From a virus, in IMG/VR virus record IMGVR_UViG_3300023178_001963: a stretch of 64,000 nucleotides of DNA. One strand, given 5' to 3'. The notes below the pieces were generated by a model. The model had not been told where the DNA came from, made no database searches, and saw only the letters and a list, made by a program, of their open reading frames with translations. Of the stretch, positions 3,001 to 29,543 are shown in pieces. The position numbers and the translations under genes are program-made. Each line of letters starts with the position of its first letter. Position 1 is the first letter of the stretch.

Positions 3001-5755
3001 CATCGTAAACCACTTCAGTTGCGATACTATCTGGAATAAACTGAATTTTAGATCCAACTGATACTGGAGATACATTAGCTGTAATGTAGTGATTTGGTGT
3101 ATCACCGATATTAATCATATCGCTTCCGCCAAACACATTGATACTTTCACGTTTCGCTAACGCAATCTCTGCTATTGCTTGTTCTAAAATTATTTCATCT
3201 GTTTTAGAATCAGAGTCTGGATCATTAAGAATTTCTCTAATGTTCGTTACAAGTTTGTTTTTATAACCGCCATACGCTAATGAAATATATTCTAATGATG
3301 CGAAAGGATCATAGTCATCACGTGTGATTGAAAAATATGCTTTAGTGATATCAATAGAATTCTTAACCATAACACTACCAAACTTGTTAAATCTTAACTT
3401 GTCTGTATTATCACCTATTTTTCTATAAGTGTTTGAAGCGTTAGGGTTACCTTCAATGCCTTCTGTTGTCTCAACAATTCTTAACAAGTGTTCGTACACT
3501 GTTGAGAATGACATTTCAACATTGTTATGGTCTAAATTATCTGGATTAAATTCAATAGATGGATCGATACGCTGCCAAGTTCCATCACCGTCAACGATAA
3601 CGTTTTCACGTGTTGTGAAGTCAACGTACACATAGCCTTCTACTGGCTTATTGAATGTAATGACGTTATCGTTGTAGGTATAATTTCCTATTTGTTTTAT
3701 ACCTTCCAGATAAACGTCAATGGTATAAAAGTTTTTAGGTTCTTGTAATAACTCTAATTTTTCATGTGTTCCGAAACCATACTCATGTCTTAAGTTTCTA
3801 TAATCGAACTCAGAAAGAATATAAAGAGGTTGATATGTTTCGTCAATTTTATATGACATATTAATTGGCATATCAATGTTAAATAAGAATTCACTTACAT
3901 AATCACCTGCTTGTAGTTTTGCTTTGATTCCAAGAAATGGATCTTGTAAAACATCGTCATCTTCTACATAATGAAAAATTTTATAATCTGATTGATACTG
4001 TTCTTCATCATTATAAAGTCTAAATGTAGGCACAGCAAAATCTGTTGCTGTAGCACTTTCATCACTAAGTTCTAGTCTCTTATCAAATTCAATGATCGGT
4101 CTTTTTGCTTGTTCAATAAAGTTTTTATTTTGACTTGTGATATATTTTCTAATATCATCATAATGATACCATGAGTTTCTATCACTCCACCAGTTAGTAA
4201 TCGTGGAGTAGTCAGTATCTTTATCTATAGTAATATAATGTATGTCTTCTGAATTACCAAGAATAAAAATATTTTCTAATAATAGATACTGTTCCCAATC
4301 CGGAGTTGTAAATTCTGAGTTTGTTTTGTATTCAATTACATGTAGTATACCTTCATCTGGTTTTACAAAACGTAAAGCATATGGGTTAACTTCTACATTA
4401 TATGGATCAAATACTTTATCTGTTAACTGATATGTATTATTTCCTATATTAAGTGTAACACGTAATTCGTCTGTGTCAACAAATGTATCACCTACTAATG
4501 GATTTTTAGGTCTATCAGCTCCTTGTGAGAAATCCCTAGCTCTATATTTTCCATCTTCTATTCCCAAGTTAGAAAAACCTGTCAGATTTACAACTGAGTT
4601 GATGGAACCATCATTAAATATATTGACATATCCATCGTCTAGTGTTGCTGATATTCCAATAGAAGCACCTAGTAGATTTAATTCATCTACAAACTCTTGT
4701 AGGTTAGCATATTTTGAATTTCCAAGACCATCAACTGTAGAGAATTCTAGTTCGTCCTGTCTCTCTACAATACCGCCATCTTCATAAGCACTAAATGCCG
4801 TACCATCAACAGGAGATGACATTGCTGGATCATTATATAATTCATAAACATCTTTAGAAATTTCTTTTACATAAAACATTTGGTCATTAAGTTGTGTTAG
4901 CCCACGTGCTAATGTCAGTTTTATTTTATTTCCATCTAAAATAATATGGTCATCATGTATATGCGTATCATCATTGTGAACATGCAATCTGACCGGAGAT
5001 GTTTGTGTTAAATTTGAAATTCTAGCTGTTGCTTTATTACCCAATGTAAATTTAACATTACCGTCAGGTAATGATGGATTTTGAGTTGATGTTGCGACAG
5101 GCCAGTTTTTATGCCAGTCTGGAGAACCTAGAACAACCCATTCGTTTTCTAATCTTACCCAATATACGATTTCATTATTAGATATTACAACCGCATAATC
5201 ACCAGTTGACCCATACGTATCAATAGGCTTTGCGTTAGCATCAAGTAGCCCCGTGCCCGGTTCATCTCTGATTATAGCAGGTAGTTCTCTTCTCCAATAA
5301 ACACCATCAATATCCTGATAGAATGAATATAGTGCGAAATCTGTAGTGAAGCCTGGTTTAACCCAATAGTATAGTTCCCAGTTTATGAACTTATCATTAT
5401 CTATAGGTAAGTTTACAGTGTAAGTGTCAGACTTGAATAGTCTTCTATGGTCATTAATTAACGCACCTTTATTATAAAGTGAGTTTAGTAAGTCATCATA
5501 AAATATATTGTCACCAATGTCTACATTAGAGAAAACAGGTTCTAGTCCATAGTTGTCTCGTTGAAAAAGATGTTCAGGGAAAGAAACATAAGCATCGTCT
5601 TCTTTATAGATACCTTTTTCTTTTCTACCAATAAACGCTCTTACTTTATCAACTTGTCCTTTAGAAAATGCCCTGTCTAAAGTACTGTCGAACATAGTCT
5701 GCAGTTCTTTATTTCTTAAATGTACCGGTAAAAGGTCATATATTTTATTCGCCAT
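1..5755 (-). CDS. Very large virion structural (baseplate-region) protein, >1900 aa, truncated by the window start
   Basis: ATG at 5755 reads MANKIYDLLPVHLRNKELQ, 2 nt after the stop of the gp6-like gene. It is absent from the ORF track, consistent with no stop inside the window. I translated only parts by hand. Confidence 0.75.
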   Translation of the reverse strand, partial: MANKIYDLLPVHLRNKELQTMFDSTLDRAFSKGQVDKVRAFIGRKEKGIYKEDDAYVSFPEHLFQRDNYGLEPVFSNVDIGDNIFYDDLLNSLYNKGALINDHRRLFKSDTYTVNLPIDNDKFINWELYYWVKPGFTTDFALYSFYQDIDGVYWRRELPAIIRDEPGTGLLDANAKPIDTYGSTGDYAVVISNNEIVYWVRLENEWVVLGSPDWHKNWPVATSTQNPSLPDGNVKFTLGNKATARISNLTQTSPVRLHVHNDDTHIHDDHIILDGNKIKLTLARGLTQLNDQMFYVKEISKDVYELYNDPAMSSPVDGTAFSAYEDGGIVERQDELEFSTVDGLGNSKYANLQEFVDELNLLGASIGISATLDDGYVNIFNDGSINSVVNLTGFSNLGIEDGKYRARDFSQGADRPKNPLVGDTFVDTDELRVTLNIGNNTYQLTDKVFDPYNVEVNPYALRFVKPDEGILHVIEYKTNSEFTTPDWEQYLLLENIFILGNSEDIHYITIDKDTDYSTITNWWSDRNSWYHYDDIRKYITSQNKNFIEQAKRPIIEFDKRLELSDESATATDFAVPTFRLYNDEEQYQSDYKIFHYVEDDDVLQDPFLGIKAKLQAGDYVSEFLFNIDMPINMSYKIDETYQPLYILSEFDYRNLRHEYGFGTHEKLELLQEPKNFYTIDVYLEGIKQIGNYTYNDNVITFNKPVEGYVYVDFTTRENVIVDGDGTWQRIDPSIEFNPDNLDHNNVEMSFSTVYEHLLRIVETTEGIEGNPNASNTYRKIGDNTDKLRFNKFGSVMVKNSIDITKAYFSITRDDYDPFASLEYISLAYGGYKNKLVTNIREILNDPDSDSKTDEIILEQAIAEIALAKRESINVFGGSDMINIGDTPNHYITANVSPVSVGSKIQFIPDSIATEVVYDENISVFINGVLEKNYTVLNGVEISFEREMTADDEIEVRYYKLIKESFIPPSATKLGIHTLYDPRFEEDTEFETATTFLVGHDGSKMPIWGDRTDSIMLMFEKLIYNRIDKTTDNLTMKNIKYGIYRDATIEYSFNEKKYTMFPFFKKWMVRNSIDNIFNTDFDPDNWKTWNYRGVNDNTPGNWRGLMHYVYRTENPLKEPWVTVGFSRPPEGFELDEQRYTTYEFWSKLKTDYNAYWPIPLDTDNNLLTVEELFFGSQISTDDIQFLDQDWEFGDGSPIEMAWRRSSEFPFIEFLCSMIMKPFEVIDNWSDELDAIISIYHKRESSDVTEIRRQKDSYQFKLGSKLGGFVNNFKLSSENSSLANSQYTEIPTDNYDLFIHTGEPNRSESFSAIVLEKVSLDDKHPTYSINNVSDYTQGTVIFNPSDEKYYRRKVETPTERETAGTINFDYTAWTLISQPKIRNFGYRIYGYDDFNPTFFAMDWDRTSGEKDWATRGDEATLNVWTPGTFYKNDTYVMYEGSPYISLSDHTASSLFNDDLQDNWKLLKEWPRVNQIRANGYKKTLQDQIKSYNYGDVLYSLDEVAHLIIGYQDYLRAVGWDFTDINSEGENIDFESLLIKFLDWSAEKHDIGEFITLTPILLSGRFSTPYGVATVQKETNKNFYRVVDSSGRQIPNTAIKFYSEGDAITWESTIPVYGMKIDITDVEHAYVIDRVDSYGDVIYDPLHHNRNLRMIIDCNRTSDWDGTLSADGYIMYDNVMIPNLETMVADTKYHRDTIVDQSLKNVNILKANQIGYTKRLYLNNHLMERESQLEFYKGFLAGKGTDSSVNRIVNKNSNFKDIKHEDMWAFKLGEYGNFNKDISSSKRIDTKLIFSDPYSVEYTGETPFKYRETARTTPIKTTGYVDSKDVNYIVRNAAVLETTVSDSYYEGDLAWIQFDSERDWDVRRLSEIAEISYVGETSDSQLYVALTNQVDIADTVYLKITNDDIDPEINGYYYLVN

Positions 5756-25564: not shown

Positions 25565-26135
25565 ACTTAAAAGGTCTAAAGACCTAAAACTCTCATAAAT
25601 CTCATATCGCTTTCGCTCAATCGATTTATTCGGTTTTTATTTTATAAAGATATTATATCTTTAATTACTTGCCTGCGGCTAAGCCACAATTGCCCCAATG
25701 CTGGGACAACTGCGGAAAAGCTAAAACTTGCCATAGCTTCATCGCCTCTGTTTTAGAGCTAGTAGCCAGTAACTACGGGGTCGGTTGGCGATTCCCCCTT
25801 CACTCAGTATTGCTCCTTTCGGACCAACGGCACCTCATGATATCCTAAACAGACAAAATATCATGTAAGTTGATAGTATTATAGTAATCTATCAGCGGTT
25901 ATATATTTATAAACTGGTCAACCACAGCCTTTGGAGCCGCGGTCGTTTTGAATTCTGAACACTCTTTTGTGGTTACGAGAAGAATAAGGGAGTTCGTCCC
26001 CTCTAATCTGACAGCAGATCCTCACCTGCAATCTCAATCCCGAGTCGGCAACCCGACCAACAGATCCACTATGTATGATTTATTATTAGCCATTGTCTTT
26101 GCCTTTAGTTGCCTATATTAGTTGTGTTTTTTGTA
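25565..26135 (-). ncRNA. Candidate large structured ncRNA (about 0.5-0.55 kb; ends uncertain)
   Basis: ORF-free gap with about 10 hairpins. Imperfect positions are G-U on the minus strand, there are GAAA tetraloops, and GC is raised. Confidence 0.6.
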
Positions 26136-26141
26136 TTAGCC

Positions 26142-26381
26142 TTAGAGTATTGGCATTCCTGCTTTTTTACTCATTTCAAAATTATCTTCTATTATATCAT
26201 TAATATGGTTTATATGTTCAGCTGGCATATCATATAGATGTTCTATATTGACGCCACCTCTCATATACCAAGATAACTTTAACATATTCTTATGAAACTT
26301 GTCAAGCTCTTTTTCAAATTTTTTTGATTTTTCTGCTATATCTTGCTGACTTGCAGTTAGGAGCCAGCGGTGGAAAAATTT
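26142..26381 (-). CDS. gp51-like hub assembly segment, probably reached by a -1 frameshift (or a 47-aa ORF from ATG 26285)
   Basis: Hand translation: (K)FFHRWLLTASQQDIAEKSKKFEKELDKFHKNMLKLSWYMRGGVNIEHLYDMPAEHINHINDIIEDNFEMSKKAGMPIL*. Missing from the ORF track. Confidence 0.7.
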   Translation of the reverse strand, partial: KFFHRWLLTASQQDIAEKSKKFEKELDKFHKNMLKLSWYMRGGVNIEHLYDMPAEHINHINDIIEDNFEMSKKAGMPIL

Positions 26382-27190
26382 ACAGGATTCATCTCCATTT
26401 CTACGACATCCTCATGTTCGCATTCTGGACACTTGAAGTTCATAGTTGTTGCTTGTCTTGGTCCAACAACTAGTTTAGTTACAGCTTCATTTATTTTTTG
26501 TACAAATGTACTTGGTACATTTGCTAAAAACTCACTTATCTCTTGTTGGTCAGTAACTTCAAAATCTGGTCCCTCTACTTTTCCAATAGTATTTGTTAAC
26601 AAGTCTACGTTGTGTTCAGCTATTTTTTTAAAACTAGCGTAAAACTTTTTTGATATTTCTAAATCTTCCGTATCGTCATTTATATCAGTTAAGTTTTTAA
26701 TCATTCGTTTCTGTTCTAATTCTATTAACGACATTCTTGTTATATTTTCAACTGTTGGCGGTCTGACATGAATCTTTAAGTCCTCATATTCAATCGGATC
26801 GATATATTCTATCTCAGGAAATCTATTCAGCATATAATTTACATCAACAGAAAAACTGCTTATCTCTTCGCATTTGGAACACTTGTGTTCATGTGTGATA
26901 TCATCGCCATATGTAGCATATTGTATTGCTAAAAATAATGCCTCTACATCTATGTTACACATTTTTTTAGGTTCTGGTATATCGGGACAACAACTTCTAA
27001 TAACACTTACAATAGCTTCACCGTTTAATAACGCATCTGGGTTTTTTAATGTTATTTCGTCTAGTGCTGTCATTGGTAAAACGCCGACTTCATCCAAAAC
27101 AGTGGTTTCCATTTCAGGATTAAATTTACCACCTGTTGGTAGTTTTATATAAATTTTTGGCTTCCTGAAGTATTTGTTTAGTTGATTCAT
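26357..27190 (-). CDS. gp26: Baseplate hub assembly protein (T4 gp26-like)
   Basis: 'YIKLPTGG', 'D.EALFLAIQYATYG' and two CxxC pairs. A GAGG RBS favours the start at 27190 (MNQLNKYF). Confidence 0.78.
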   Translation of the reverse strand: MNQLNKYFRKPKIYIKLPTGGKFNPEMETTVLDEVGVLPMTALDEITLKNPDALLNGEAIVSVIRSCCPDIPEPKKMCNIDVEALFLAIQYATYGDDITHEHKCSKCEEISSFSVDVNYMLNRFPEIEYIDPIEYEDLKIHVRPPTVENITRMSLIELEQKRMIKNLTDINDDTEDLEISKKFYASFKKIAEHNVDLLTNTIGKVEGPDFEVTDQQEISEFLANVPSTFVQKINEAVTKLVVGPRQATTMNFKCPECEHEDVVEMEMNPVNFSTAGS

Positions 27191-27293
27191 TTTGATAACC
27201 TCATTGTGTGATAAATACACTATAATATATATTTATTATATTTGTATTTAACTTAATAATTATATACGAATATAACTCAAAAGAGAGGTAAGT

Positions 27294-29543
27294 ATGGCAG
27301 ATAGTACATATATTGAAGGTTTAGGTCCTGGGGTCCCACAGTGGGCAAATGAATCTACACAGAAAATGGTATTACAAGCATTAACTAACGGCTTGTCACA
27401 GAATACCGCGGCTAATAAACAAATACTGTCAATGCTTACTAGAATAGCTAATGGCGATAAAGTTGAACAAGGGCATCTCAGAGGTGCTATAAACGAACTT
27501 AAGAAGATTGGCGGCACTGTTAAGGCACAGGCAAGCCAAGATAGACAAACTAAAACTATAGAAACAAAACAACTGGGTTTAATGTCACAGTTGTTAACAT
27601 TAAATCAACAGCAAACTAGTATAGCAAGAGCTTCATTAAATGTTCAAAAACGTTCACAAGAACTACAAAAAGAAGGTTATTCTGAAACAATCGCAAATAT
27701 GAAAGCACAGTATGAAAAACTTGGAGAACAATCAGGTGTAATTGGTGAGATTTTTGGTAAAGTCACATCCGCATTGGGTGCTGTGGCGGGCGCAGTAAAT
27801 GCTGTAACACAATATACTGAAGGACAAGCAAGAGAGAGATTTAGCTTTGCGCAAGAAATAAGACAATCTGGTCTTATGGCTGGAATGGATGCATTAAGTT
27901 CAGGTTTAATAGGCCTATCTGAAACTGCTCACAGAACTTCATTTACTTTAGGTGAAGCAGCCGAATTCACAAGAAAGTTTTCACAGGCAGTTGGAGTTCG
28001 TGGCGTAGAAGCATCTTTGAGTTTTGCCAACGAATTAGCACATTCAGAAGGCGCCAATTTTATGAATAGATTTGGTCTACAGTTTGGAGAAGTAACTGAA
28101 TTAGCAGGAACATACTTAGAATCTGTACGTTCTATGGGACAATTAGATAAAATATCAAATGATGATTTACGTTCGGGCGCTGAAGAATTCATGTCTACTG
28201 TAGTTGCAACTTCAAACGTTATGAAAATAAACTTACAAGAATCAGCAGCTATGATTGCGCAGACATTAGGTAGAAATGATATAGGTTCTTTATTAGCCAC
28301 ACTAGATAGTAGATCAAGACAAAATGCTGAAGCAGTTGTAGGTATGGCGGGTGGTATGGATTCCATACTAGGTGAAGCACTAGCTATGAGACTAGCAGCT
28401 GGATCAAACCAAGCATTTGTGCAAACGGATCAATATGCTTCATTATTGGCTGATCCTATCACAGCAGCACTTCTTCCAATAGTTGATCAATTGGCAGCGG
28501 CCACTGAGACTGGTGGAACTGCTGGATTTCAAACAGCATTAGCTAATATCGGTCCTGCTTTAGATGCCGTTGTTGCTCGTGGCGCAGATTCCCGTTCTTT
28601 ACTGTTAACAGATACTGGAACCTCACAACGAGCAGTTGCTGAAGCAGCAAGATTAAGGCAAACATCAGGTGATGCTAATGCAGGATTTGTTGGTTTAACG
28701 TCAGACGATACGGCTATACTAACAGGGTTAGAAGTCGAAAGAGCGACAGTAGTTGCTATGGAAGGTATGAATACTGCTGTTTTAAAACAGGCAGATTTAG
28801 CTACTACATTAGGTGGACTATATGATGCCCAGGCTGCGTTAAGTATTTCTTTACAAAAACTTGTCAGTGAGACTATAACACCACTCTCCACCACAATCAA
28901 AGGAGCAATTAATCTACAAACTGCAGCAGTTGAAGGAGCAGCACTGACTGCTGGTGGTGTTGCAAATCTTGCTGATTTATTCAATGGTAATACTACTGCT
29001 ATTGTTGGTAATACGGAACAATTACAAAGACTAAGAAACGTATTAGAATCTAATGCAATTGTGGCTTTACAAGAACAACAAAACCAAGCAGCACGTGAAA
29101 ATGTTATCCCAATGCAGGAAAATCTACAAAGAACAAATGAAACACTTAAAGAATTCGCTGATAGAATAGGTGTAGATGTAAAAGACCTAACACAGGAAAT
29201 GATCGCTGAAAATGCTACGTTTGTGGAAAAATTTGTCACTGGATATGCGAAACGATTAGAAATGGCACTAAGATTGCGTGATGAAACACTTGAACCAATG
29301 ATTGAAAGAGGTCAAACTGAAATTGGAGTATTAGATGCTAAAAATGTAACTCTTATGGTTGAAGAAATGTTAAAGAGAAGTAATAATACAGAATCATCTC
29401 TATCTGGTAACATAGCTCAGTTGACGGATGAAATATCTAAAATGAAAAAAGATGGTGTTACTTCAGACGAGAGTAGACAAATAGAAATAATGACATCACT
29501 GATATCAGAAATAAGATCAATGATAGTACAATTACAGAGATAA
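27294..29543 (+). CDS. Probable tape measure protein
   Basis: 749 aa, Ala/Gln/Leu-rich helical composition; lies between the hub assembly genes and the portal. Confidence 0.6.
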   Translation: MADSTYIEGLGPGVPQWANESTQKMVLQALTNGLSQNTAANKQILSMLTRIANGDKVEQGHLRGAINELKKIGGTVKAQASQDRQTKTIETKQLGLMSQLLTLNQQQTSIARASLNVQKRSQELQKEGYSETIANMKAQYEKLGEQSGVIGEIFGKVTSALGAVAGAVNAVTQYTEGQARERFSFAQEIRQSGLMAGMDALSSGLIGLSETAHRTSFTLGEAAEFTRKFSQAVGVRGVEASLSFANELAHSEGANFMNRFGLQFGEVTELAGTYLESVRSMGQLDKISNDDLRSGAEEFMSTVVATSNVMKINLQESAAMIAQTLGRNDIGSLLATLDSRSRQNAEAVVGMAGGMDSILGEALAMRLAAGSNQAFVQTDQYASLLADPITAALLPIVDQLAAATETGGTAGFQTALANIGPALDAVVARGADSRSLLLTDTGTSQRAVAEAARLRQTSGDANAGFVGLTSDDTAILTGLEVERATVVAMEGMNTAVLKQADLATTLGGLYDAQAALSISLQKLVSETITPLSTTIKGAINLQTAAVEGAALTAGGVANLADLFNGNTTAIVGNTEQLQRLRNVLESNAIVALQEQQNQAARENVIPMQENLQRTNETLKEFADRIGVDVKDLTQEMIAENATFVEKFVTGYAKRLEMALRLRDETLEPMIERGQTEIGVLDAKNVTLMVEEMLKRSNNTESSLSGNIAQLTDEISKMKKDGVTSDESRQIEIMTSLISEIRSMIVQLQR

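Follow-up and report, generated by a model that had tools for sequence, protein, structure and literature searches.

A probable −1 programmed ribosomal frameshift in the gp26/gp51-like baseplate hub gene of an uncultured giant phage

Tail assembly chaperone genes are known for a conserved −1 frameshift, described for gpG and gpGT of lambda (Xu, Hendrix and Duda 2004, as cited in PMC5009743). This G-T frameshift is presented as conserved and general in long-tailed phages, "except T4" (Atkins et al., PMC5009743). T4 has gp26 and gp51, two assembly chaperones of the baseplate hub, gp51 being absent from the particle and needed for its assembly (Leiman et al. 2010, PMC3004832, Table 2). As for slip sites, H_HH.U_UU.Y ranks with the most efficient classes of −1 motif measured in Escherichia coli, and the heptamer U_UU.U_UU.C is in use by some insertion sequence (IS) elements (PMC4066793). 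The locus described here lies on the minus strand of a 64,000-nucleotide (nt) stretch of the IMG/VR virus record IMGVR_UViG_3300023178_001963 (the whole stretch is called the window below), whose source is an uncultured salt-marsh giant phage. Its gp26/gp51-like gene very probably makes two products, of 277 and 349 amino acids (aa), by a −1 programmed ribosomal frameshift at the heptamer A AAT TTT, as comparison with related genes suggests; the argument is the strict conservation of this AAATTTT, where some ribosomes would slip back by one base. Such an event would be of the programmed −1 type in a tail-morphogenesis chaperone gene, a kind already known. What is new in the window is a heptamer specific to its clade, A AAT TTT, with a run of five T (T5) in about half of the clade, and the hairpin that goes with it.

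The zero-frame gene extends from ATG 27190 to TAA 26359-26357 (minus strand) and encodes the 277-aa protein. A preliminary description, made from the letters of the window, had called it gp26-like, and this identity is confirmed by a match to the Pfam family PF12322 (T4_baseplate; 59.1 bits for a curated cut-off of 24.5, E = 6.7e-16), as well as by a match to the PHROGs family phrog_150, "baseplate hub" (E = 1.3e-19). The protein contains two pairs of cysteines (104/107 and 254/257) and has 312 homologues, which measure 275-310 aa in nearly all matches listed. The last zero-frame codons read GTA AAT TTT TCC ACC GCT GGC TCC TAA, which places the slippery heptamer (A_AA.U_UU.U, 26381-26375, minus strand), the proposed site of a tandem −1 slip, in the X XXY YYZ register, five codons ahead of the gp26-like stop. 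The in-frame position given in the preliminary description was confirmed by reading the register by hand. Both A AAT TTT and T TTT TTC, the form met in more distant relatives, belong to the H_HH.U_UU.Y class.

The −1 frame, open from TGA 26414-26412 onwards, ends with TAA 26144-26142, which makes 79 codons when counted from the heptamer. A slip would append an extension of 77 codons (FHRWLL...GMPIL, followed by the TAA; 26142..26375, minus strand) to the first 272 residues, and would thus give the 349-aa product, of which the extension is the C-terminal part. The first ATG, GTG or TTG of this frame in the window is ATG 26285, which leaves 32 codons without a start, and the 27 bases before it hold no GGAG, GAGG or AGGA. 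All that had been claimed of this frame, namely 79 open codons, no ATG for 32 of them and no ribosome-binding site before ATG 26285, is therefore correct, and the predicted products of 277 and 349 aa, with the junction ..NPVNFFHRWLL.., fit strong comparative evidence.

This evidence comes mainly from a scan of viral contigs with an alignment as query, which returned 80 loci, 62 of them distinct, with homologues 34-69% identical (the same scan gave no match with a single protein as query, so that an alignment was needed). The motif AAATTTTT is identical in all of the 39 aligned loci, and AAA TTT T is found in 61 of the 62 distinct loci. Throughout the set of 62, which spans 34-100% identity, the codon of Asn271 is AAT (61/61) and that of Phe272 is TTT (62/62). 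By comparison, in 25 control columns of the same genes, taken from conserved amino acids that have two codons, both codons are used and the major one accounts for 52-85%. The codon preceding Asn271 encodes Val, Ile or Ala, yet its third base is A in 61 of the 62 loci; zero-frame coding offers no reason for this A, which is the X of X XXY YYZ. The single exception, locus L065, reads GAT TTT TTC, i.e., T TTT TTC. The T-run is restricted to T5 in the window and in 34 of the 62 loci, all clade members, and is a run of six (T6) in most relatives. Judged from these alignments, the heptamer is conserved beyond the need of the encoded amino acids.

The same 62 loci indicate that the −1 frame is coding from the heptamer onwards. 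In 59 of them, the segment from the preceding −1 stop to the heptamer contains no ATG, GTG or TTG, and in 39 that stop is located merely 2-4 codons before the heptamer. The length of the −1 open reading frame (ORF) stays within 79-82 codons in 59 loci, and the position of the zero-frame stop shifts among 1, 4, 5 and 13 codons past the heptamer. The first start codon past the heptamer is found at codon 6, 7, 18, 32, 33, 39, 51, 58 or 63, depending on the relative, and mostly corresponds to the conserved Met codons 32 and 39. The ATG of the window (26283..26285, minus strand), at extension codon 32, is one of these conserved internal Met codons and not a likely start, as the start positions of the relatives vary. 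Conservation of the extension protein sets in at the very first residue past the heptamer (FF..WL.TAS..EI.. in 39 loci), and the 18 loci with a zero-frame stop one codon past the heptamer keep GCTGG beyond this stop. Finally, the codon periodicity switches frame at the heptamer: up to this point column entropy peaks at the third positions of the zero frame, and from there on at those of the −1 frame. By these signs, the −1 ORF is a coding sequence that overlaps the end of the zero frame and lacks a separate initiation site. Conservation of the heptamer and of the −1 overlap among homologues, which the preliminary description had set as a check, is thus what was found, the heptamer being kept at 61 of the 62 loci and an upstream start being absent from 59.

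A profile search with the extension returned 580 related proteins. Used alone, the extension has no significant match in Pfam and PHROGs, and none by tblastn in the phage record collection. Within it, a further motif, A AAA AAA, is present at about 26327-26321 (minus strand), in register with the codons of the extension (tca aaa aaa ttt). Considered as a second slip site, it was rejected for not being conserved in relatives, and is probably incidental.

A second scan of viral contigs extended the family to 59 further distinct loci, in which the extension occupies the −1 frame of a hub ORF of at least 271 codons; all 59 have T TTT TTC in register. The arrangement is also present in cultured jumbo phages, since PA5oct, Atu_ph07, 121Q and Phosso combine T TTT TTC with a homologous −1 ORF of about 75 codons. 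The extension of PA5oct (NC_071039, locus L081, positions about 3334-3570), which counts about 77 codons and comes after PQE65_gp336, a gene annotated "baseplate hub", has no ATG, GTG or TTG start and is left unannotated. In 121Q and Phosso, the extension is annotated as a separate hypothetical protein.

Other lineages carry the same extension without a shift of frame. In 18 clusters (50% identity) of proteins of 319-351 aa, it is fused in frame at the C-terminus, and PF12322 precedes it in all nine of the natural-fusion clusters scanned. At seven fusion loci found in viral contigs, the T-run is absent from the junction. When the virtual shifted product of the window (349 aa) is compared with a hidden Markov model (HMM) of the natural fusions, it gives a single match that covers positions 3-334 of the 334 model positions, with an ungapped junction, and scores 264 bits versus 176 bits for the unshifted protein. 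This ungapped match is the strongest single argument for a shift located exactly at the heptamer and for both forms being wanted.

The number of hub genes per genome follows the same division. Copy number was checked within the 64-kb window, which holds one hub gene (PF12322), and in related complete records. The nine frameshift-type records, i.e., five viral contigs and the four cultured genomes, all have one PF12322 gene; six of the nine are complete or nearly so, two of the viral contigs being 99-100% complete. In the fusion-type records (5/5), PF12322 genes always come as two neighbours, one long and one short, the short one lacking the extension. T4 also has two PF12322 genes, those of gp26 and gp51. 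In the IMG/VR contigs L092-L098, the in-frame fusion gene and its short paralogue lie in tandem on the same strand, with the short gene first in L092-L096 and the long gene first in L097.

Two additional elements around the heptamer had been proposed as parts of the signal. The hairpin (26345..26368, minus strand; read by hand and with RNAfold) pairs GCTGGCT at 26368-26362 with AGTCAGC at 26351-26345, that is, 7 bp including one G-U, after a 6-nt spacer and around a 10-nt loop that contains the zero-frame stop. Its presence in the window is confirmed, but it is kept only in the window's own clade. There, the 40 nt past the heptamer have a mean folding energy of −12.1 kcal/mol over 38 loci, with a mean z of −2.46 and 84% of the loci below −1.64. 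The 5' arm is GCTGG(C/T) across the clade, and the 3' arm is made from codons that differ by locus (Ala-Ser, Ser-Gln-Gln or Thr-Gln-Gln). In the fixed register, 84.5% of the cells of the stem are paired, versus 17-56% in slid controls. The hairpin is clade-specific and a likely stimulator of the slip. The GGAG at 26396-26393 (minus strand), 11 nt upstream of the heptamer, is equally real, but it is not conserved, a Shine-Dalgarno (SD)-like motif being found 6-15 nt upstream of the heptamer at only 13 of the 62 loci. It was rejected as a component of the signal and is probably a by-product of the ATG GAG codons (Met-Glu). The three-part architecture of dnaX and IS911, to which the locus had been likened, fails for the same reason.

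Several explanations other than ribosomal frameshifting have to be considered. The least probable, to the point of being negligible, is an error of assembly or sequencing in the homopolymer, or a recent inactivating indel in what was a single ORF of 349 codons. Single-ORF forms do occur in other lineages, but the T-run is missing from them. Moreover, the stretch is supported by at least 17 metagenome runs and by an ungapped independent DNA contig, and the same −1 arrangement recurs in independent assemblies (121 distinct loci) and in the finished genomes of four cultured phages, which excludes a sequencing error. Transcriptional slippage, with RNA polymerase inserting an additional U at the T-run, would give the same long product, and homopolymer runs can provoke polymerase slippage (discussed in PMC4066793). 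With T6 in most relatives, this explanation has some appeal, but it has very little probability, as it requires neither the codon register nor the invariant leading AAA, both of which are kept. The window and 34 of the 62 loci have only T5, which is shorter than the known transcriptional slippage tracts. No base is inserted in an RNA-library contig across 26301-26471, but this evidence is weak, as rare variants are lost from contigs and DNA may be present in the library, and a comparison of RNA by contigs only is insensitive to the level of slippage or of expression.

Alternatively, no fusion would be made and the −1 ORF would be a small gene in its own right, with translation beginning either at ATG 26285 (a 47-aa product) or, after termination at the hub stop, by reinitiation there. 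Support for this comes from cultured phages, as an ATG overlaps the hub stop in 121Q (TAATG) and in Phosso and Atu_ph07 (ATGA), in all three of which the ORF has its own annotation as a protein, and two metagenome proteins (P0128 and P0129) start with MKTAS at this overlap. Nevertheless, a separate gene is an improbable explanation for the family. It does not fit the 32 codons without a start in the window or the lack of an upstream start in 59 of the 62 relatives; the conservation of the protein and the periodicity begin at the heptamer, ahead of the zero-frame stop, and the first codons available as starts vary in position and encode conserved internal Met residues. It also leaves unexplained the frozen synonymous sites, the in-frame fusions and the pattern of one or two hub genes.

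The overlapping starts just described also weigh against frameshifting as the full account, in that a separate small protein could be an additional product in the phages that have an overlapping ATG, and so do the following points. In the window, AAATTTTT occurs 9 times, for 12.7 expected from shuffles; the motif alone is not beyond chance, and its significance comes only from its conservation. The hairpin of the window (−8.9 kcal/mol by RNAfold) is unexceptional as a single sequence, with z = −0.68. The covariation of the stem is weak (35/500 shuffles), its arms double as codons for the conserved Trp-Leu and Ala-Ser, and the 24 more distant loci have no common structure downstream of the heptamer. 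In fusion-type lineages, the long form need not come from slipping. Finally, the pair of 277-aa and 349-aa proteins is predicted here from sequence comparison.

If frameshifting operates as proposed, most ribosomes would read through the heptamer to TAA 26359-26357 and release the 277-aa protein. In a fraction of them, the hairpin located 6 nt downstream would cause a pause while tRNA-Asn and tRNA-Phe occupy AAU UUU; these ribosomes would then slip one base back onto AAA UUU and continue in the −1 frame, thereby adding the 77-residue helical domain that makes the 349-aa protein. The short form would correspond to T4 gp26 (PF12322 alone) and the long form to T4 gp51 (PF12322 and a tail), these counterparts being assembly chaperones of the central hub, which contains the tape measure protein gp29. 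That the ribosome and not RNA polymerase slips, with what efficiency, that both forms are needed and that they act in the manner of lambda G and GT are points that we infer. By analogy with lambda, PF12322 hub chaperones might be the T4-lineage version of G/GT, a tentative proposal with something less than even prospects. The short form would then coat the tape measure protein, and the rarer long form would recruit hub or tube subunits via its helical extension, in a ratio set by the slip; gp26 and gp51 of T4 would represent this pair in a lineage where a duplication has taken the place of the frameshift.

The analogy with lambda G/GT, already raised in the preliminary description, gains support from the HK97 chaperone-like fold of the N-terminal domain and from the role of T4 gp26 and gp51 as hub chaperones. 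The N-terminal 135 residues of the window protein were modelled alone, with a predicted local distance difference test (pLDDT) of 78. When the N-terminal domain (100 residues) was compared with 48,161 PDB chains using VIA-align, only 2ob9, 3klu and 3fgx reached Z >= 5. The first, titled HK97 tail assembly chaperone, has a Z of 5.8 over 84 residues with a root-mean-square deviation of 4.6 Å; 3klu (YqbN) and 3fgx have Z values of 5.8 and 5.4, the three best matches align 84-85 residues, and the next match has a Z of 3.4. Of the three, only 2ob9 bears that title; 3klu and 3fgx are reported to have the tail assembly chaperone fold (Pell et al. 2013). The modelled N-terminal domain thus appears to adopt the tail assembly chaperone fold, with moderate Z values and a specific top of the list. 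Foldseek with the isolated N-terminal domain gave no match, whole-protein fold searches of the PDB gave generic helical-hairpin matches only, and neither the hub family nor the natural fusions, used as profiles against PDB sequences, gave a relative at E <= 0.1. A search of BFVD returned hub proteins of the gp26/gp51 type. As for the extension, an AlphaFold model of a natural fusion (pLDDT 91, predicted template modelling score 0.86) shows it as four confident helices.

The resemblance to gp51 is clearer in architecture than in sequence. Residues 1-206 of T4 gp26 (208 aa) match the whole Pfam model PF12322; in T4 gp51 (249 aa), residues 1-201 match the whole model and are followed by a C-terminal tail of about 48 aa. 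The gp51-like label of the preliminary description is supported by this succession of PF12322 and a C-terminal tail, but the direct similarity found by hhalign between the extension and the gp51 C-terminus is only weak (P = 6.6e-4, probability 27%), although it is located where expected. Full-length profiles of the natural fusions and of the gp51 family align end to end, with a probability of 54%. Used against the single T4 gp51 sequence, hhalign found no similarity to the extension, but this insensitive query is uninformative, as it missed even the shared PF12322 domain. In the precomputed annotation of the gp51 homologues P0285-P0376, PF28602 appears as a second family; it is not among the precomputed annotations of the extension homologues.

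The genomic setting is partly shared with cultured jumbo phages. Around the hub gene, the window has a divergent ORF of 749 aa (27294..29543, plus strand), then a T4-type portal gene (PF07230), and a PDDEXK/RusA-like resolvase gene is located downstream of the −1-frame extension. Both 121Q and PA5oct share with the window the divergent gene for a large structural protein and the downstream gene for a junction resolvase or endonuclease, the portal gene of 121Q is in the same position, and the hub proteins of these two phages are about 28-30% identical to that of the window. The divergent neighbour had been called a probable tape measure gene. It has no family match in Pfam or PHROG, its nearest named clusters in the ESM Atlas are tape measure proteins (0.92; a language-model lead, used as context only), and the corresponding genes of PA5oct and 121Q encode structural proteins of the virion. 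It is thus a candidate only, and its gene is divergent from the hub gene, not downstream of it as in lambda. A blastn search of the window DNA against the phage record collection gave no match. Scans of the window with Rfam and ARAGORN were also without match, and promoter and terminator scans gave no more than the level of shuffles. Directly downstream of the extension, positions 25565-26135 (minus strand) form a gene-free, G+C-rich and structured-looking region, which has no Rfam or tRNA match.

The stretch is present in salt-marsh metagenome runs, at least 17 of which hold half or more of its sampled words. An independent salt-marsh DNA contig matches it ungapped, with no indel across 25900-27400; this contig has a single G>T change at position 26250, inside the extension. 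Contigs from RNA libraries cover 25900-26249 and reach only parts of the stretch.

A literature search found no paper reporting a frameshift in gp26/gp51. Among the papers listed for RaK2, 121Q, PA5oct and Atu_ph07, the word frameshift was not found, except in a study of defence systems that names PA5oct (4 occurrences). The window offers a clean case, with a variant heptamer, which argues that the giant relatives of T4 use a frameshift in the gp26/gp51 family, and which supports the view that lineages with two genes, such as T4, keep the short and long forms as separate paralogues. If the reading modelled on G/GT were true, the textbook exception "except T4" would be removed and gp51 would gain a mechanism. 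The case also offers a testable role for both gp26 and gp51. The annotation of cultured jumbo phages can be corrected in consequence, the extension being missing from that of PA5oct and described as a separate hypothetical protein in 121Q and Phosso. Furthermore, the frameshift, the overlapping start and the in-frame fusion with its paralogue constitute a natural series for addressing the question of why two forms would be needed in a fixed ratio.

Compared with the described systems, the locus resembles IS3/IS911 and dnaX in that a heptamer is combined with a downstream structure. It differs from them by its unrelated gene and by the SD-like upstream stimulator, which is not conserved in the family of the window (13/62). 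With lambda G/GT, it shares a chaperone gene for tail morphogenesis in which a −1 slip, close to the 3' end, would append a C-terminal domain. Nevertheless, the window protein is about twice as long, with a four-Cys site and a long helical hairpin; its gene and that of the candidate tape measure protein diverge, whereas the lambda gene is directly upstream of the tape measure gene; and its heptamer A AAT TTT is unlike that of lambda, G GGA AAG. The difference from T4 lies in the genetic organization, since T4 has two divergently transcribed genes and no frameshift. The end of gp26, ..EFFELL, is encoded there with TTC TTT, which is not slippery, gene 25 comes next, and the gp51 tail counts about 48 aa versus the 77 residues of the extension in the window. 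In spite of these differences, the family PF12322 is common to both, and the short and long forms of the window would be equivalent in architecture to gp26 and gp51, respectively.

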